Part shown: one piece after another, positions 12,576 through 53,322 of the stretch
Layout of the letters: every line of letters begins with the position of its first letter
Numbering within the stretch: position 1 is the stretch's first letter
Source: Octopus vulgaris
Lineage: Eukaryota
DNA length: 64,000 nucleotides
Assembly (NCBI GenBank): GCA_951406725.2
Contig: OX597832.1
Coordinates: 16,988,001-17,052,000 of the forward strand
Direction of reading: 5' to 3'
Translations under genes and position numbers: made by a program
The notes under the pieces: model-generated
The model's database searches: none
What the model was told of the DNA's origin: nothing
What the model saw: only the letters and a program-made list of their open reading frames with translations

Positions 12576-13152
12576 TATTTCTTTATTGCTCACAAAGCGC
12601 TAAACATAGAGGGGACCAGCAAGGAGAGACGGATTAAGTCGATTACATCGACCCCAATACGTTGCTGGTACTTAATTTATTAACCCCAAAAGGAGGAAAG
12701 GCATAGTCGACCTCGGCGGGATTTGAAATCAAAACCTAACGGCAGACGAAATACCTATTTCTATTTCTTTTCTACCACAAGGGGCTAAACACAGAGAAGA
12801 CAAGCAAGGACAGACAAACGGATTAAGTCAATTATATCGACTCCAGTGCGTAACTGGTACTTAAGTTATCGACGCAGAAAGGATGAAAGCAACGTCGACC
12901 TCGGCGGAATGAAATACCTATTTCTTTTCTACCCACAAGGGGCTAAACACAGAGAGGACAAACAAGGACAGAGAAACGGATTAAATCGATTATATCGACA
13001 TCAATGCGTAACTGGTACTTATTTAATCGGCCCCGAAAGGATGAAAGGCAAAGTCGACCTCGGCGGAATTAGAACTCAGTACACAACAGCAGATGAAATG
13101 CCGCTAAGCATTTAGCCCGGTGTGCTAACGTTTCTGCCAGCTCACCACCTTA
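12576..13152 (-). mobile_element. Tandem array of three tail-A SINE units with a single 5' head
   Basis: Junctions gaaatacc|tatttc at 12755/12756 and 12918/12919. Head only at the right end. Confidence 0.9.
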
Positions 13153-14012: not shown

Positions 14013-14402
14013 TTTTTACTATAGACACAAGGCTTGAATGTTTGGGGGCGGGTGTCAGTCGATTAGATTGACCATAGTGTTTAACTGCTACTTAATTTAT
14101 CGACGCCGAAAGATTCAAAGGCAAATTCGACCTCGGCGGATTTTGAACTCAGAACGGAGCGATGGGCGAAATACCTATTTCTTTACTACCCACAAGGGGC
14201 TAAACACAGAGGGGACAAACAAGGACAGACAAACGGACTAAGTTGATTATATCGACCCCAGTGCGAAACTGGTACTTAATTTATCGACCCCGAAAGAAGG
14301 ATGAAAGGCAAAGTCGACCTCGGCGGAATTGGAACTCAGAACGAAACGGCAGACGACTAAGCATTTCGCTCGGCGCGCAAACGATTCTGCCAGTTTGTCG
14401 CC
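14013..14402 (-). mobile_element. Chimeric SINE dimer (tail-A unit joined into a tail-B SINE)
   Basis: Junction gaaatacc|tatttc at 14175/14176. The left unit has a different tail (ttttactatagacacaaggcttgaatgtttggggg). Confidence 0.85.
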
Positions 14403-19141: not shown

Positions 19142-19537
19142 TTTTTCTAATTTAGGTACAAGGTCCGAAATTTTGGGGGAAGTGGTGAGCAGTAGATTAG
19201 ATCGACCCTAGTACGCAACTGGTACATAATTTATCGACCCCGAAAGGATAAGAGGCAAAGTCGACCTTGGCGGAATTTGAACTCTGAACGTAAAAATAGA
19301 CAAAATACCTATTTCCTTACTACCCACAATGGGCTAAAAACAGAGAGGACAAACAATGACAGACAAACGGACCAAGCCGATAATATCGACCCCAGTGCGT
19401 AACTGGTACTTATGCAATCGATCCCGAAAGATGAAAGGCAACGTCGACCTCGGCGGAATTTGAACTCAGAACGTAGCGGCAGACGAAATACGGCTACGCA
19501 TTTTGCCCGGCATGTTAACGTTTCTGCCAGCTTACCT
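19142..19537 (-). mobile_element. Chimeric SINE dimer (tail-A unit in tail-B SINE)
   Basis: Junction aaaatacc|tatttc at 19309/19310. Confidence 0.85.
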
Positions 19538-22535: not shown

Positions 22536-22938
22536 CTATGTTACTTTATTAGCCACACAGGGTTGCATACAGACGGGACAGATTACAAGATAGAGCTTTT
22601 CTTTATGGGGGGAAAAGAAAATACGTGGGGTAGGTTTTCGATCAAAAGGGATCGCAAAAAGAAAGAAAGATAAAAACTATCAATAGGGATCGTGTATCAC
22701 AATAATGTCATGATGTAAAGTGTAAAGAGGGAAGTAGATAGGATTTATCCGTGGAAATAAAAGCCTACGGAAAAGGCTATGGTAACCTCGGTCAATACTG
22801 TTACATGTTAACACATTTGTTTGCAAGTAGGTAACCCTCTGTTTCAAATTTTTCCGGGTTCATAGGATTATGCTCAAGGTCGCTTCGTCATTCATACGTG
22901 CCATCCTTGCTACATTCACCCATCTTCTTTTGAAACAT
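22536..22938 (-). mobile_element. 5'-truncated Tx1-like LINE (end of ORF2 + 3' UTR) inside (GATA)n
   Basis: 22860-22937 (minus) encodes CFKRRWVNVARMARMNDEATLSIIL*, similar to the LINE ORF2 end TFRKRWKYVARVLCVQGTV*. It has a related 3' tail and GATA repeats on both sides. Confidence 0.75.
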
Positions 22939-22965
22939 TAGGTAGATAGATAGATAGATAGATAG

Positions 22966-23029
<64 letters not shown>

Positions 23030-23065
23030 TTATAGATAGATAGATAGATAAATGATAGATAGATA

Positions 23066-23486
23066 AGTTTCTTTATTGGCCACACAGGGCTGCACACAGA
23101 TGGGACAAATTACAAGGTAGAGCTTTTCTTTTGAGGGGATGAAAAAAACAAAAAACAAAAACAAACAGAAACAAAAAAAGTGGCGTAGGTTTTCGATCAA
23201 AAGGGATCGTAAAAGGGGAAAAAAAAAGAAAAAAAGAAAAGAAACAAGAGAAAAGAAAAAGGAAAAAAGAAGAAAAAAGAGGAAAAAAGGAGAAGAGGGA
23301 AAAAAACGATCAATAGGGATCGTGTATCACAGTGTCATGATGTACGGTGTAAAGGAGCAAGCAGATAAGGTTTATCCGTGGGAAGAAAAGCCTACGAAAA
23401 ACACTACGGTAACCTCGGTCAATATTGCTTTATGTTACCACATTTGTTTGCAATTGGGTAACCCTGTGATTTCAATATCTGGGTTT
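23066..23486 (-). mobile_element. Second, shorter copy of the same Tx1-like 3' UTR inside (GATA)n
   Basis: Collinear with 22541-22860 but diverged and with longer purine tracts. Flanked by GATA repeats. Confidence 0.75.
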
Positions 23487-23506
23487 AGATAGGTAGATAA
23501 ATAGAT

Positions 23507-23615
<109 letters not shown>

Positions 23616-24077: not shown

Positions 24078-24764
24078 CAAGTTTATCATATGACAACAAT
24101 ATTGTTTTTAGTATTGTAGATTCTGAATGCTCTCGATGAATTTCTAATTTTCATCTTAATTACTTTCACTTTGGCAATTTACGATCTCTTGTGTTATCAC
24201 CTGGATAGACATTATGTTTATACCAATCACCTAGCTAAAACAAATTTGATCACTTTTTTAAGCATTAAGATTATATACAAAGCCGGACACACATACCCTA
24301 TGTGTGCGTTTAAGTTTATCTGACGTTTGCGTTTTGTAAGGCGCAACGGAATATAATCTCAATGCCCTTTGTATAAAAACGCCCGAAAGCAGGTCATTGC
24401 CAGGTGAGACACTCACACCAGATCTCTTTTCTCGGAGCTATAGACATCGATGTTTCGTCAATGTTCTGACTTCTTAATGCCGCGTACTGAACTGTCCAAT
24501 TGTGAGCTGTGAGCCGTCCAACTGGCTATTCTTTTCTACTCTAGGTTACAAAGAACGAAATTTTGGGGGAGGGGGCCAGTCGATTAGATCGTCCCCGTCA
24601 CACAACCGGTACTTAATTTATCTACTCCGAAAGGATGAATGGCAAAGCCAACCTCAGCGGAATTTGAACTCAGAATGTTCAACTGGCTATTGCTATATGC
24701 TAAATGCTTTAAGAACCAATTGCAGGCACGTCACACTATGTCATTAAGATTATATTATATTACA

Positions 24765-30399: not shown

Positions 30400-31072
30400 T
30401 CCTGGTTTCAAATGGCTAGCTATTACAGGGAGGGTGTCCAGTTGATTACAACGATCCCAGTGATTCATTGGTATTTATCTAATCGATCCCGGAAGGATGA
30501 AAAGCAAAGTCGAGCTCGGCAGAATTTGAATTCAGAGCATAAGGACAGACGAAATACCGATAAATATTTTGCCAGGTGTTCTAATGACGCCGAAAGGATG
30601 AAAGGCAAAGTAGACCTCGGTGGAATTTGAACTCAGAACGTAGCGGCAGACAAAATACCTATTTCTTTACTACCCACAAGGGGCTATCTTCAGAGAGGAC
30701 AAATAAGGACAGACAAACGGATTAAGTCGATTATATAGACCCCCGTGCGTAACTGCTACTTATTTAATCGACCCCGAAAGAATGAAAGGCAAAGTCGACC
30801 TCGGCGGAATTTGAAATCAGAACGTAGCGGCAGACGAAATACCTATTTCTTTACTACCCACAAGAGGCTAAACACAGATATGACAAACAAGGACAGACAT
30901 AGGTATTAAGTCGATTACATCGACCCCAGTGCGTAACTGGTACCTAATTTATCGACCCCGAAAGGATGAAAGGCAAAGTCGACCTCGGCGGAATTTGAAC
31001 TCACAACGTAACGCAGACGAAATACCGCTAAGCATTTCGCCCGGCGCGCCAACGTTTCTGCTAGCTCGCTGC
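30400..31072 (-). mobile_element. SINE cluster: old copy plus a partial unit plus two tail-A units
   Basis: Junctions at 30659/30660 and 30843/30844, spaced 184 bp. Confidence 0.85.
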
Positions 31073-46870: not shown

Positions 46871-46978
46871 AAATTTATTGGTATCAAAGTTTGGCACAAG
46901 GCCACCGATTTCGGGGCGTGGGGTGGATTAGATTGATTGCATCGACCCCCAAGCTTCAAATGGTATTTATTTTATCGC

Positions 46979-47206
46979 GGTGAGCTGGCAGAATCGTTAG
47001 CACGCCGGGCAAAATGCGTAGCCGTATTTCGTCTGCCGTTACGTTCTGAGTTCAAATTCTGCCGAGGTCGACTTTGCCTTTTATCCTTTCGGGGTCGATT
47101 GATTAAGTACCAGTTGCGCACAGGGGTCGATGTAATTGACTTGATCCGTTTGTCTGTCCTTGTTTGTCCTCTCTGTGTTTGGCCCCTTGTGGGTAGTAAA
47201 GAAATA
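46979..47206 (+). mobile_element. Tail-A SINE nested antisense in an older related SINE (host ~46878-47335, minus)
   Basis: TSD ggtatttattttatcgc at 46962-46978 and 47207-47223. Confidence 0.9.
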
Positions 47207-47535: not shown

Positions 47536-47903
47536 TATTTCTTTACTACCCACAAGGGGCTAAACACAGAGGGGACACACAAGGACAGACAAAAGGATTA
47601 AGTCGATTACATCGCCGCCAGTTCGTAACTGGTACTTAATTTATCGACCCCGAAAAGATGAAAGGCAAAGTCGACCTCGGCGGAATTTGAACTCGTAACG
47701 TAACGACAGACGAAATACCTATTTCTTTACTACCCACAAGGGGCTAAGCAGAGAGGGGACAAACAAGGACAGACAAAGGGATTAAGTCGATTACATTGAC
47801 CCCAGTGCGTAACTGGTACTTAATTTATCGACCCCGAAAGGATGAAATGCAAAGTCGACCTCGGCGGAATTTGAACTCGGAACGTAACGACAGACAAAAT
47901 ACG
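47536..47903 (-). mobile_element. Two headless 184-bp SINE units (tail type A) downstream of the LINE
   Basis: Units start at 47536 and 47720 (tatttctttactacccacaagggg...gacgaaatacc). They contain a B box (gagttcaaattcc on minus) and a core gactttgcctttcatcctttcggggtcgataaa resembling the Meta/MESC SINE domain. Confidence 0.9.
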
Positions 47904-48150
47904 AATTTCTTTATTGCCCACCGGGGGCCAAACATAGATATGGACAGTACAACTGATGGGATCAGTGAATCGATATGATTTTACATAAATGTGACATCAA
48001 AAATAAAATACAATACATAAAAATCGAATGGAATACACAGTACAAAAACAATACAAATGAAGCGATGATCAAGTTACGCTCCGATCCCACAAGCCCCGAT
48101 CTACCGCTGATACCTTTTTATTTTTCCTTTTTTTTTTTTTCCTCGTCTAT

Positions 48151-48737
48151 TCACACGGTTCCTTGCACGCACAACACTCGTGCAACATACTTCCATCTCT
48201 TTCGGAACGTACACTCTGACAGACACCTCTTCTCCAGCCACAGTTTCCTTTTCAAATGAAAAGAAAAAAAGGATCGTAAATTGTCACCAGAGATAAAGTT
48301 GCCTGTCTTAATTCCTTTTATCCTAGTCTTCCATACTGCCTCTTTTGCTATTGCTACAACCGTGAGAAAACAATTCTTACCTTCGTTCGTTAGAACTCCC
48401 TGTGGGTCAATTTTTATAATTGACTCAGTCGGCAGCCGTACTCTTCCTTCGCCGGACAACAGATGTTCAGCATAAGCCCACATTTCAGTTATCTCCGGAC
48501 ACTGAACAATAGCGTGAGGGACGGTTTCCCTGTCCCCCCCCCGCATCTTGGACAGGTCGGCGACTGACGTTTACCATGTCTTGCGAGCTTATCCCAAACG
48601 GGCAAGGCACCTCTGTAGCATTGCCAGGTTAAGGACTTTTGGAAGTTGTCCAACGTTCTCAACCCGAATGTACGATGAAAGAAGCTGTCCAGTTGAATAA
48701 ATCCGAGACCTAGAGTCGACCCCAGGCCATCGTCGCA
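48151..48737 (-). pseudogene. C-terminal part of LINE ORF2 with CCHC zinc finger, separated by one stop and one frameshift
   Basis: Reading on in frame past the TAA at 48738-48740 gives CDDGLGSTLG...WQCYRGALPVWDKLARHGKRQSPTCPRCGG. A shift in the G-run near 48535-48542 then gives DRETVPHAIVQC...FRKRWKYVARVLCVQGTV*. Together these form the L1-type C-x2-C...H-x4-C knuckle. Confidence 0.85.
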
Positions 48738-51554
48738 TTAAGACTCTACCAACCCACTATATAAAATCCGTGTGGAACCCCCACCGCTGGCGTTGCCCGA
48801 GCGCCGGAACAGCAAGAGGGCCTTACGGCACTCTTTATGCCACTCACTCGACCTCGGTCTACGAGAACACCAGGTTTCCTGTTCGCAAAAACTCTTGAAC
48901 TCAGGGAACATTTGTCTGGCCAGTGGAGACCACACCCGTTCACTATCCAGGAGAATCCAGAGGTGCCTCAACCTCAACGCATGTCTGCGCATCATTAACC
49001 AAGGCATCCCTAAACCTCCATTTAAAGGCTTTTGACAGCAGACAGAGCGTTTCACAAGTGGCGACCTGCCCTTCCACAAAAAGCGAAAGAGCTGTCTCTC
49101 CAACCTGATCAACCACGAATCCGGACAGGGCACGACGGTCAGGCGGTAGGTAATGACCGATGCGATAAACACATTGGCCACTTCCGCCCTCCCTTTCAGG
49201 GATAGCCACCGCCAAGACCAGGTCTTGACTACTGCAGCCACCCTGCTCAATACCTCCGTCCAGTTCTTCTCTATCTGGAGGCCTGGTCCAAACCAGACTC
49301 CCAGCAACTTAACCGGTCCCTCCGTCCAGCGCCTAACAACACTGTCTGAAGGCATCGACTTGCCAACCCAGGTGCCGAGCTGCAAGCCGACCGATTTTTC
49401 CCGGTTAATCTTTGCTCCTGCTACCTCCTCGTAAGCCTCAATAGTCTTACCTACTTCACGTAGGCGTGCCACTGTGGTTACACCGATAGTGATATCATCC
49501 GCGAAAGCCGTAACAAACTCCTCTAGTCCTGGTTCTCTCGGGATGCCACTCAACCTTTGCAGTAATGGCTCGAGAGCCATCACATACAAAAGTGGTGAAA
49601 GCGGACATCCTTGACGAACCGAGCGTCTGATGCAGAACGGCTTCGAAAGGAAACCGTTCACCCGAACTATCGAGTCAATGTTGTGGTACAAAGCGATAAA
49701 CCACCTGAGGAAGCCAAGGCCCAGGCCAAACCGCGCAAGTACAGTCGCTAGGTATCGATGGTCAACCCTATCAAAAGCTTTAGACTGGTCCAAATGCACC
49801 ATTGCCCCACCTTTGCCAGATTTATTACCAAACCTCTCTATGGTATAGCGAATAAGATGGAGGGCATCCTGAATGGTTCTGCCTGGGATGGCACATGTCT
49901 GTGCCTCCCCGACTATACCATTCGCGACACGCGCCAACCTTTTTGCTAGAACCTTGGCCAAAATCTTCACTTCTGCGTTTAACAGAGTGATGGGCCTGAA
50001 ATTCTCTAGAACGTCCCCCTTGTCCGGGTCCTTTCTGACCAACGTCACTACTCCCCGGCGCACAGATCTGGGGATAAACCCATTCTGTTTCCAGTTCGCG
50101 TACACGTCAGTCAGTAGTTGCCCGAACAAGTCTGGCATACATTTATACAGCTCGTACGGAAGACCATCAAGTCCCGGTGACTTACCCGCTTTACAATCGA
50201 CCAAAGCCTCTATCATCTCCTCAGGTGTGATTGGCCCTTCGCAAGACTCCGCATCCGACCCCGAGAGGCACGGCAGCCCGGTAAGAAAGTCCTCGAGGGC
50301 TCTCCCACCACCAGGACCGCCGTCACCCCCGAACAGCTGGGCGAAGTACTCCCGAAAGACCTCACACATTTTCTCGGGTTCGTTTATCAAGACACCATTT
50401 TGATTCGTCAAAGACCGTATAGAGGAACTATTTCCTTGCCGAGCTTCCACCACTCGGGCCCATCCAGCGGCTTTGATTCCTTCACTTCCCATTGCACGTA
50501 ACTTAGCTCTGGTAATACTTCCCATGTGGTGGGCTTCAAGATGCTGGTTTAACTCCAGTCTTTTCACCCTCGCTTGGTCTGTATTACCAGTCCTCCAGGC
50601 TTCTTCTAGTTCCTTAACTAGACCATCTCCTATTTTACGTCCCTTCTTAGCTAAACTTATGCTAAACCTAATAGACTCATATTTGATGGCTCTTTTTAGG
50701 GCGTACCACCATTTGTTATTAATGATGGTACCTGTTAATGCCCTCTGTATTAACATCTTGTTCCGCTTTCTGTACTCCTCAATCGCCAAAAGGGACGTAT
50801 TGAGTTTCCAGTAGCCAGATCCCTGTCTATGCATCTTATCTACCGTCAGTTTACAGGTAACCATATTGTGGTCACTGTAGCTGACTAGAAAAAACTGTGG
50901 ACACTCAACTATGGACTTATCTTTTTCTCTAATTAAAATCCTATCTAGATATGTTCTGGTAGACCCGTCACTATTTGACCACGTCCACTGTGGAGTGTTC
51001 GGGTGCTCCAACCTATATGGATCTGCTAGCTGAAATTGACTTAGCAGATCCCGAAAGCCTGGGTTACATTTTCTGTTCATGTTCGAGTTTGAGCCAACAC
51101 AATCTGTGTGCGCTGCACATATTGTATTAGAGTCTCCTAACACTACTAGTGAATGCGACGTGGCTAGGAACTTCCCTAGGCCACGAAAATATTCAGTTTG
51201 CGGGCCAATAATGTTTGGTGCGTAAATAGCGACCAGCCTGATTGTCTTGCCACAACTGAATGTCAAGTCGAGAACGACCAGCCTGCCTTCTGGGTCAGAA
51301 AAAAACAACTTTTTCTCGGCTACCCGGTTTCTTTTTAGTAGGACCAACACCCCACCCCCACCTCCCGCCCGACTCGGAGAAACGTATTTCTCGTAGCCGT
51401 TCAGGAGGGGGAGCAGATCTCTTGGCCCCTTCACCCGGGTTTCCGTTGCAACAATTACATCCAAATTTCTCGACCTGATGTCATTCAGAAAGCGTCCTTG
51501 CTTCCAGCCTGACAACAGGCCATGAACATTTAAACAACCAATGTGAATAGCCAT
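48738..51554 (-). CDS. LINE ORF2: apurinic-like endonuclease + reverse transcriptase (ends at a premature TAA)
   Basis: APE motifs CLNVHGL, ATETR, VAIYAPN, VLGDSN, YLDRIL, SDHNMV. Tx1/L1-type GYWKLNTSLL. RT motifs KSPGLDGL, NFRPITLLN, DQSKAFDRVDH, SVRQGCPLSPLLY, AFADD, KLLGVWF. ATG at 51554. Confidence 0.95.
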   Translation of the reverse strand: MAIHIGCLNVHGLLSGWKQGRFLNDIRSRNLDVIVATETRVKGPRDLLPLLNGYEKYVSPSRAGGGGGVLVLLKRNRVAEKKLFFSDPEGRLVVLDLTFSCGKTIRLVAIYAPNIIGPQTEYFRGLGKFLATSHSLVVLGDSNTICAAHTDCVGSNSNMNRKCNPGFRDLLSQFQLADPYRLEHPNTPQWTWSNSDGSTRTYLDRILIREKDKSIVECPQFFLVSYSDHNMVTCKLTVDKMHRQGSGYWKLNTSLLAIEEYRKRNKMLIQRALTGTIINNKWWYALKRAIKYESIRFSISLAKKGRKIGDGLVKELEEAWRTGNTDQARVKRLELNQHLEAHHMGSITRAKLRAMGSEGIKAAGWARVVEARQGNSSSIRSLTNQNGVLINEPEKMCEVFREYFAQLFGGDGGPGGGRALEDFLTGLPCLSGSDAESCEGPITPEEMIEALVDCKAGKSPGLDGLPYELYKCMPDLFGQLLTDVYANWKQNGFIPRSVRRGVVTLVRKDPDKGDVLENFRPITLLNAEVKILAKVLAKRLARVANGIVGEAQTCAIPGRTIQDALHLIRYTIERFGNKSGKGGAMVHLDQSKAFDRVDHRYLATVLARFGLGLGFLRWFIALYHNIDSIVRVNGFLSKPFCIRRSVRQGCPLSPLLYVMALEPLLQRLSGIPREPGLEEFVTAFADDITIGVTTVARLREVGKTIEAYEEVAGAKINREKSVGLQLGTWVGKSMPSDSVVRRWTEGPVKLLGVWFGPGLQIEKNWTEVLSRVAAVVKTWSWRWLSLKGRAEVANVFIASVITYRLTVVPCPDSWLIRLERQLFRFLWKGRSPLVKRSVCCQKPLNGGLGMPWLMMRRHALRLRHLWILLDSERVWSPLARQMFPEFKSFCEQETWCSRRPRSSEWHKECRKALLLFRRSGNASGGGSTRILYSGLVES

Positions 51555-51565
51555 CACTTACCTGT

Positions 51566-52813
51566 TTAATTATGATTGTCCGGTGGAGGGGGACCCTCCA
51601 CCTTTTTTTGATCCAGGGTCGGAGGTGGACGGTCTTGGGAAATAGATTTGTCAAAATCCCGTCTCACCACCGACACAGAATTATCAGGTGGAGGGTGAGT
51701 CTCCACCTTTTCCTTTTCTCGCGGGATCGGAGCTGGTAATCCATGAAATATCGACTTGTTAAAATCTAATCTCAATGAAGATACAGTCTTTCTGTACTTA
51801 TTTTGTAGAATTCTATAAGTCTTATTTGAGACTTCATATATGTCGTAATTGATAAATTCCTCTGAAAGGTTATCAACTTTTTTTACAGTCTTTATGAGTT
51901 GAATGTCTCTCATGAGCTCAGTATCTTTAGTGTATACGGCTATTATGCCTTTTTCTTCTTTTTCTCTTCTGGCAGTCTTTTTTGGTCGTTGTTCTGTAGT
52001 AGTCGCCGCTCTCGGCTGGGTTGCTGGTTGTATTTTTCTTTTGTTTGTTGTTTTTTTCCCAGCTGTTTCTTCTTTATCTTCTTCCTCTTTGTCTTTTTTC
52101 TCCTCTTCCTCCTCTTCTTCATTTTCCTTGCAGTTCCTTCGAATGTGTCCTAATTGACCACATAAAAAACATCGAGGTTTTCGGCCCTCAACAAACACCA
52201 CGAGGTTCTCCTCCCCTACCTCAATTGTCTCAGGAATTGTTTGAATTATTTTAGGGTCCGCTTGAATGAGAAGATTAATTGTTTGACCATCCCAGCGTGG
52301 GTTTTCCGTAGCGGTAGCCTGGAGGAGAGTAATTTTTTCTACCTCTTTGATTAGGACTGCCGCCAACAACCACATAGGTTCGACCTCTGGCGGGACCCTT
52401 GTAATTTTTATTCGCGACGTCCTCATCCCCATATAATAGGGTATTAACTCCACGTCGTTCGTTTTCAACGTTTCAACTGAGTTCTTGTGTGCTTTTTCTT
52501 TATTGGTGAACCTTACTTCCACCGTTCCGAATTTTTTCCTCTTCTCAGAAATACTACGTCGCCCAATATTGGCTTTAAGCACTTTTCTATTTTCTCTTCT
52601 GACATTCTTTCAATTTTTCTTTTTTGTAGACAATATGTTTTGAAAATTATTGTTTTTTTGCTTTTCTTCCTGTAATAACTTTTGCGGAGGTTCAGTTTTC
52701 ACACCTTTGTCAGTTATTTCCATCATTTTGCTGTATTTCATAATTTCGCTTTTATTCGTCGACAGTATCTGGGTTCCACCCCCAGCAGCCAACGCAAAAC
52801 ATTTTTTTTCCAT
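51566..52813 (-). CDS. LINE ORF1 (nucleic-acid-binding protein with CCHC zinc knuckle), interrupted by one in-frame TGA
   Basis: CFLCGQLGHIRRNC knuckle followed by an acidic/basic low-complexity region. Track ORFs 52610-52813 and 51566-52582 are in the same frame, separated by TGA at 52610-52612. The true start is uncertain. Confidence 0.8.
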
Positions 52814-53259
52814 TTTTTGGTTCTATCTGGATGCTAGGCACATCAATTATTCTCTTCGACACAATGCCTTTGTTCTCTGGCAAAGTCGGAAACTCTTCTG
52901 GTGAAAGTTCTGACGAGCTCTCAGACACATCTCCAAAAATATCAAATATATTATCGTCTCTGCTATTCCTTCTTGTAGCGGGGAAACCCCTATTTCCTTG
53001 TCTGTAGTTGGATCCTCGCCGGACATGTATTTCCTCCTCTCAACAGGAGAAACAAGTATTTCTGCTCCAACAGTAGGCTCCATGCTAGACGACATTCTTC
53101 CCCCCAAAGGGGGAATGAACAACGCGTGCTACCACAAGCACTAAGTGTTTTCAATTGAAAACTCCAACAGTTAAGTTATTCAACAGTTTAACAAGAAACA
53201 ACAGTTGTTAACAATATTAACACCACGAAACAGCAAGTCTTACTTCACGAACACATGTG

Positions 53260-53322
53260 CGACAGACAAAATACGGCAACGCATTTCGCCCGGCGTGCTA
53301 ACGTTTCTGCCAGCTCGCCGCC
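53260..53322 (-). mobile_element. Displaced 5' head of the SINE interrupted by the LINE
   Basis: Minus strand ggcggcgagctggcagaaacgttagcacgccgggcgaaatgcgttgccgtattttgtctgtcg matches the heads of intact copies at 28412 and 39612. Confidence 0.9.

Follow-up and report, generated by a model that had tools for sequence, protein, structure and literature searches.

A Tx1-like long interspersed element (LINE) in the genome of Octopus vulgaris ends in a hairpin-bearing 3' tail without poly(A) that it shares with a short interspersed element (SINE), and nearly all of its copies have inserted into the head of that same SINE at a single position. The copy described here lies in a 64,000-nt stretch (contig OX597832.1, positions 16,988,001 to 17,052,000 of the forward strand; hereafter the window), and its family, which we call family A, was followed through a genome of 2.8 Gb in 227 contigs. 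We read these observations jointly, with a probability of roughly 0.7, as target-primed reverse transcription that would begin at a point set by the hairpin, with the endonuclease of each LINE family determining the target and the SINE making use of the common tail.

The shared tail and the LINE clade that carries it

The first-pass annotation of the window had quoted four similar 3' ends, belonging to the LINE, the SINE, a SINE variant and a "GATA element". All four were found, on the minus strand (LINE, 47904-47934; SINE, for example 47537-47566 and 47721-47750; variant, 12577-12606; GATA element, 23067-23096), and none contains a poly(A) run, as had been claimed. LINE and SINE tails are 76-83% identical across 24-42 nt, and the LINE tail reaches a local score of 38 against the SINE majority tail, whereas the maximum of 5000 shuffles is 22. 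The GCC(C)...GGY stem that had been ascribed to every tail is found in three of them; the variant lacks it, and a shifted stem folds there. Because TRF merges the LINE tail with a 184-bp SINE tandem, we checked the idea that this tail is merely the end of an adjoining SINE unit and rejected it, since all 30 of the best genomic matches to the LINE 3' untranslated region (UTR) close in the tail (one in shortened form). The 5' ends are likewise fixed, in 30 of the 30 best genomic 5' matches.

Other Tx1-like families end in the same way. A zf-RVT search returned 25,803 candidates, 150 of which were scored, and 3' ends were read at 70 loci (a few of them duplicates) and at 20 more from an endonuclease search; nearly all intact ends have a stem, a loop of 4-7 nt ending in purine-T, and an AATAAA-type signal. 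A quick reverse transcriptase (RT) tree, built for grouping from this genome's families only and excluding L175 and L239 (short or no RT match), splits A, D, F, H, B and G with high support. Sister families are 76-80% identical in the RT and alike in tail design, yet differ in target, the SINE head in one case and varied sites in others; more distant families target microsatellites. Family D copies have duplications of 16-17 bp, and the flanks of D and H are varied, like those of most dispersed SINE copies. Judged from these ends, a clade of Tx1-like LINEs has this tail as its constant 3' terminus, and the tail marks that clade.

The stem can be followed across families. A Watson-Crick stem of at least 3 bp lies beside the signal in 17 of 18 non-redundant tails (3.7 expected from shuffles), and stems of at least 4 bp do so in 15 of the 18, compared with 3 and 4 of 18 in upstream windows. 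The covariation check that the first-pass annotation had called for was made as a strand-swap control with loop length left free (4-7 nt): in an alignment anchored on the loop T, 16 of the 18 tails form a full 3-bp Watson-Crick stem, a number that averaged 4.6 and never exceeded 12 over 20,000 swaps. Pair 1 is C-G in 13 tails and T-A in 5, while pair 3 is A-T in 8, C-G in 6, G-C in 2, T-A in 1 and mismatched in 1. Between families the stem strands read GCCC/GGGC, GATT/AATC, ATCC/GGAT, AACC/GGTT, GATC/GATC and AATC/GATT; the loop T is invariant and AATAAA nearly so. These exchanges indicate that the hairpin stem is kept through compensatory changes, despite the weak folding of single tails. With homologous LINE and SINE 3' ends, a covarying stem-loop, an AATAAA-type end and no poly(A), the tail appears to be of the stringent type, in an L1/Tx1-like LINE and its SINE alike, and that proposal of the annotation is upheld.

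The coding parts of family A place it in the L1 superfamily. Its second open reading frame (ORF2) encodes an N-terminal APE-type endonuclease (PF03372), an RT (PF00078) and a C-terminal zinc finger, has Atlas matches in clusters with RVT_1, Exo_endo_phos and zf-RVT, and finds its nearest solved protein in human L1 ORF2p (E 8e-64, against 4e-20 for R2). A Pfam scan of ORF1 gave zf-CCHC and detected neither Transposase_22 nor RRM, and the Atlas matches of ORF1 are CCHC and ZCCHC3-like clusters at 0.88-0.93. The ORF1 of the Tx1 clade is of the RRM/zinc-knuckle type and not Transposase_22 (PMC5203782), and family A also has the fixed repeat site and target duplication of that clade; by ORF1 type and target specificity it thus fits the Tx1 group. 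Copies elsewhere in the genome are 97-99% identical to the window LINE, and young copies with an open ORF2 are present, the 1,134-codon frame being intact at three other places (one in L248). Two A copies 6.4 kb apart on contig C3, near 153.11 Mb (L008 and L012), have identical host flanks and represent either a local duplication or an assembly artefact.

The GATA element had been taken for a separate, third kind of element. We reject this, as it is a 5'-truncated LINE of a sister family, B. TATC-type sequence follows all 30 of the best family B copies, a (TATC)n run lies upstream in 24 of the 30, and 14 of the 30 loci have ORF2-like sequence upstream, the two longest being 55-69% identical to A in amino acids. 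Family B evidently inserts into (TATC)n, as these flanks show. At L078 a third B-like family with an altered tail stands directly upstream of a family B copy, and at L173:6752-6960 a long (TTA)n run follows the family that is sister to B in the RT tree; this one copy suggests that microsatellite targets may differ between sister families. Microsatellites of the types (TA)n, (GATA)n and (TTA)n crowd the window itself, whose 64 kb give 109 TRF rows.

Shared flanks were also seen elsewhere in the clade. Eight of nine family G loci read have an identical short 3' flank, with a 17-bp duplication (L154-L159, L185, L188), and this flank has no Rfam match. Common 3' flanks occur within the groups L114/L120; L112/L175/L187; L160/L174/L186; and L115/L162/L167/L169, suggesting more specific targets, some of them at the 5' ends of other Tx1-like copies. 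ARAGORN and Rfam gave no match for the shared flanks of five other loci.

The SINE head as the target of family A

In the window the LINE splits a host SINE, with the head upstream (53260-53322) and the rest downstream. This target specificity, which is missing from the first-pass annotation, holds throughout the family: queried with LINE sequence only, all 30 best 3' matches and all 30 best 5' matches lie at the SINE head site. A pattern search of the genome, with every hit inspected, found 74 exact family A tails, 73 of them LINE ends and one a SINE variant. The script placed 70 of the 73 LINE ends at the site motif; reading by eye moved two of these to a look-alike class, leaving 68 in the SINE head, 2 in a non-SINE look-alike and 3 elsewhere. 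Since the exact young-type site occurs just 17,209 times in the genome, chance is excluded as a source of this preference. Among public sequencing data no RNA run was listed, and in four runs made up of contigs none of the pieces listed spans a SINE-LINE junction with 31 nt on either side, a result that speaks neither way.

The insertions are independent, and family A copies are by sequence divergence much younger than their hosts. The LINE parts diverge by 1.1% (3', 24 loci, that is, 30 minus five rearranged hosts and one duplicated host) and 0.8% (5', 29 loci), whereas the host SINEs diverge by 7.6% in the body and 11.5% in the head, about 7 to 14 times as much. If a SINE-LINE-SINE composite were mobile as one unit, with nesting a single event, the outer duplication that 12 of the 24 hosts retain could be its mark, but the hosts are far more diverged than the LINE parts and come from several SINE subfamilies, and eight 5'-truncated A copies are joined directly to SINE heads. 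Composite transposition is refuted by host divergence and by these truncated copies.

The site itself changed over time. Of the 70 site-motif ends, 50 have C as their junction base, 18 have G and 2 have T, and the G-junction cases are older copies with a differing sequence just 5' of the tail. The window and 40 arbitrary 10-kb stretches together contain 34 SINE heads, 7 of C type, 19 of G type and 8 of A type, the last probably decayed G. The base is visible in five truncated young A copies, and every one of these lies in a C-type head. A second pattern concerns position 14 of the duplication (counts with one duplicated host removed), which is T in the 5' copy of 16 of 24 pairs and in the 3' copy of 2 of 24, with 13 T/C pairs and no C/T pair. 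By lineage, one LINE sub-lineage has mostly C here (4/5) and the remainder mostly T (20/24). From this asymmetry we infer that A RNA starts with bases resembling the target, through which it pairs with the upstream head. Downstream of another A copy, at L233:6037-6472, SINE positions 11-95 are tandemly repeated in 85-bp units, a second kind of array.

A course of events can be proposed on these grounds. The hairpin and AATAAAGAAAT likely tell the RT where to start; the family A endonuclease would nick at SINE position 47, the RT would prime at the nick on the hairpin tail, and, where the RNA is full-length, a few target-like 5' bases would pair with the upstream head. The inserted LINE would leave the A-box-like and B-box-like motifs 5.4 kb apart, so that the host SINE copy would be silenced. 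The less specific families (H and D) may scatter the SINE, and A-lineage enzymes may put SINE RNA into other SINE heads, starting 184-bp tandems, some of which would then be extended by local duplication.

SINE copies, drivers and tandem arrays

The element is a typical SINE in its shortness (229 bp), high copy number (53,386 exact tails genome-wide, against 74 of family A) and target duplications (12-19 bp where found, in 12 of 29 scored elements). Its head has motifs that by eye look A-box-like and B-box-like, and ARAGORN and Rfam returned no tRNA or other identity for the head. In a motif comparison bearing on the Meta-domain, four of its core motifs were absent from the bivalve SINEs of one published supplement. 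At least three further SINE families share head and core and have tails that are not of the Tx1 type (window 19191-19315, 14057-14182 and 24578-24678; random loci L191-L230). The flank of L074 holds a different SINE family, presumably CORE-like.

The first-pass annotation had held that the tail names the window LINE, or a close relative, as the driver of the SINE, and for family A this is not supported. Over the last 44 nt, the match to the SINE majority tail is 36-40 for H, 36-38 for D, 37 for Q, 34 for B and E, 33 for A and F, and 24 for G. The tail cannot single out family A, because H and D match the SINE better (up to 40/44 against 33/44); on the tail alone the SINE would point to H or D. 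That family A is the main driver is hence quite doubtful to us, whatever weight is given to the significant tail similarity, the like duplication lengths and the common site: besides its low tail rank, A is nearly confined to one site, about half of the sampled SINE tails lie elsewhere, and most SINE copies are far older than those of A. The insertion site is a better link between A and the SINE than the tail. Likely the SINE took its tail from a member of the Tx1-like group and has been copied by several.

Tandem arrays offer a further link to the A lineage. Exact tail-to-head junctions number 20,831, a figure whose ratio to the tails is rough because the two search patterns differ, and in 36 of 74 sampled SINE tails the sequence runs on at head position 47-48. 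The register and the G base of the tandem junction are those of older A-lineage insertions. Within a set of 13 mixed dimers, divergence is 14.9% among downstream units and 10.2% among upstream units, and 17.6% among monomers of the downstream family (n=6); the downstream units, which are thus older, belong to three different SINE families, which fits young SINE RNA entering older heads. We give about even odds that A-lineage enzymes also build SINE tandems. The window has 184-bp SINE tandems at 30582-31026 and 12577-13099 as well, and junction lists give arrays of 6 and 10 junctions on contig C1 near 4.04 and 4.68 Mb.

Extending these ideas, one may imagine a closed loop of parasites, in which one Tx1 lineage has come to specialise on a SINE that itself borrows from Tx1 elements, the SINE promoter being split by insertion, the site shifting from G type to C type with SINE subfamily turnover, and SINE RNA being carried into SINE heads to give the ~20,000 tandem junctions; we hold this tentatively, as something short of an even bet. 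A little less probable, though still a serious possibility, is that family A is target-specific and the tail clade-wide, but that A carries no SINE, the tandems having come from a few dimeric masters and local duplication, with one or more scattered families, whether H, D or an extinct relative, as the only drivers. H and D are the best tail matches, the 32 loci of these two families (a few counted twice) all lie away from the head site, outer duplications enclose whole arrays at L020 and L023, and the units of some arrays have private variants in common, all of which would follow from such an origin. It leaves the junction register and G base without the A-lineage connection, does not fit the older downstream units from three families, and sits poorly with single SINE duplications that in some cases begin GGT, as at A-lineage off-target sites. 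Unlikely, in our view, is a tail that is a polyadenylation signal with an incidental stem, the site being chosen by pairing of read-through RNA with the target and not by the endonuclease or a recognised hairpin. AATAAA is nearly invariant, the hairpins are weak, there are donor-derived bases at the 5' joint, and co-transcription with the target can strengthen specificity (Kojima 2015, PMC4494074). Yet the insertions lack poly(A) and have ends constant to the nucleotide, the stem strands covary across families, and the tail design is kept in truncated copies and in sister families with other targets.

Several observations weigh against target-primed insertion from a recognised tail with the SINE as its user, or against parts of it. 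Folding of single tails is no better than that of shuffles (z 0.48, -0.13, 0.36 and 1.15), so that only position and covariation argue for the stem; the odds from covariation are overstated because the families are related, and AATAAA doubles as a polyadenylation signal, which could account for part of its conservation. None of the ~90 Tx1-like LINE loci, the clade surveyed, has the complete SINE tail. Among the 74 sampled SINE tails none is followed by (TATC)n, and family B therefore does not appear to carry the SINE. With regard to the tandems, 74 A-lineage tails are few relative to ~20,000 junctions, and a full-length SINE is joined behind the 16-bp site in only two exact cases, so that a homing model needs homology for most 5' joints. 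Same-family tandem neighbours are 7.2% apart, against 9.1-10.1% for unrelated units, evidence that local duplication is at work as well.

Table 1. Features of the window, in window coordinates
Feature	Position	Strand	Remark
Family A LINE, full-length, Tx1-like, 5,356 bp	47904..53259	minus	this copy frameshifted
ORF1, 347-aa open stretch, CCHC zinc knuckle	51566..52609	minus	
ORF2, APE-type endonuclease and RT	48738..51557	minus	C-terminal zinc-finger part runs on to ~48150 in other frames
Shared 3' tail, ~44 nt	47904..47947	minus	closes in AATAAAGAAATT, without poly(A)
Terminal hairpin	47916..47928	minus	GCCC stem, 5-nt loop with purine-T at its end, GGGC stem
AATAAA signal	47910..47915	minus	immediately 3' of hairpin
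16-bp duplication, 3' copy	47888..47903	minus	SINE positions 47-62
16-bp duplication, 5' copy	53260..53275	minus	
Host SINE head, 5' part	53276..53322	minus	A-box-like motif at 53302-53312
Host SINE remainder	47721..47903	minus	B-box-like motif at 47866-47876, core, Tx1-type tail
Reference SINE copy, uninterrupted	46977..47205	plus	own 17-18 bp duplication
Second SINE unit	47537..47719	minus	starts at same head position (184-bp tandem)
SINE variant	12577..12762	minus	last unit of SINE tandem
"GATA element", 3' UTR of 5'-truncated Tx1-like LINE, family B	23067..23485	minus	between (TATC)n runs 22939-23065 and 23486-23615
Second truncated family B-like copy	22537..22915	minus	more diverged, then (TATC)n

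Comparison with known systems

The octopus elements provide an animal group of the L1 superfamily whose 3' end is of the stringent type, lacks poly(A) and occurs in natural compensatory variants, a case relevant to the question whether the superfamily ancestrally had strict tail recognition (Ohshima 2012). They extend the known Tx1 targets to a SINE and offer a mechanism for SINE tandem arrays. Because similar RTs and tails go with different targets, the set of families is also a natural panel for how APE endonucleases gain specificity. Both Tx1 target specificity and stringent tails in the L1 clade are already known, and a SINE as Tx1 target is apparently unreported: in full-text literature we found no report of a SINE-targeting Tx1 element or of a Tx1-derived SINE tail, a search outside which lie Repbase, subscription papers and the supplements of PMC4494074 and PMC13282606, which could already hold these families. 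In an annotation of octopus repeats, 13 L1-Tx1 families are given as recently active, and its main text does not mention targets (PMC13282606).

The comparisons that follow draw on excerpts of the cited papers. Target-specific Tx1 LINEs such as Tx1L, Keno, Kibi/Koshi and Tx1-Mar (Kojima 2015, PMC4494074) have, like family A, two ORFs, an APE-type endonuclease and fixed repeat targets, and family B resembles Kibi and Koshi in targeting microsatellites. The targets named there are DNA and long terminal repeat transposons, U2, U5, 5S, satellites and microsatellites, with no SINE among those in the excerpt, whereas the target here is a SINE with a Tx1-type tail. Crocodilian SINEU and Tx1-Mar come closest in that a SINE and a Tx1 element are linked by a shared target and tandems form by repeated insertion; a duplication of ~16 bp accompanies SINEU-3 in Mariner-N4, as it does family A. 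SINEU differs in its poly(A) end, in having no 3' tail in common with a LINE, as far as that text describes it, and in its target, a Mariner element and not itself (PMC4494074).

Stringent tails in the L1 clade come from maize, sorghum and Chlamydomonas (PMC3472496, PMC3747384). LINE1-1_ZM with ZmSINE2/3 and L1-1_CR with SINEX-3_CR have, as here, a conserved 3' end of ~45 nt shared with the SINE, a compensatory hairpin, and a conserved loop and flank. Those pairs are from plants and an alga, and the algal pair has poly(A), whereas the octopus tail belongs to an animal Tx1-like group, lacks a terminal repeat and has other motifs. Mollusc SINEs are modular as well, in that head and core are common to them and the LINE-derived tails, 35-61 bp long, can be exchanged; the partners reported in the excerpts are CR1, CR1-Zenon, L2 and Nimb, and not Tx1 (PMC11481361, PMC4824008, PMC4758252).

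Squamate SINE-derived satellites and tandem Dip SINEs are, like the octopus arrays, built from partial SINEs in units of 150-180 bp, and the portion of that work cited here describes no site-specific LINE with the same junction (PMC10702118). Dada DNA transposons insert, as family A does, within sequence of the RNA polymerase III type, some families between the A and B boxes (PMC8869645). Dada elements are DNA transposons whose targets are real tRNA genes, whereas family A is a LINE whose target is the head of a SINE.
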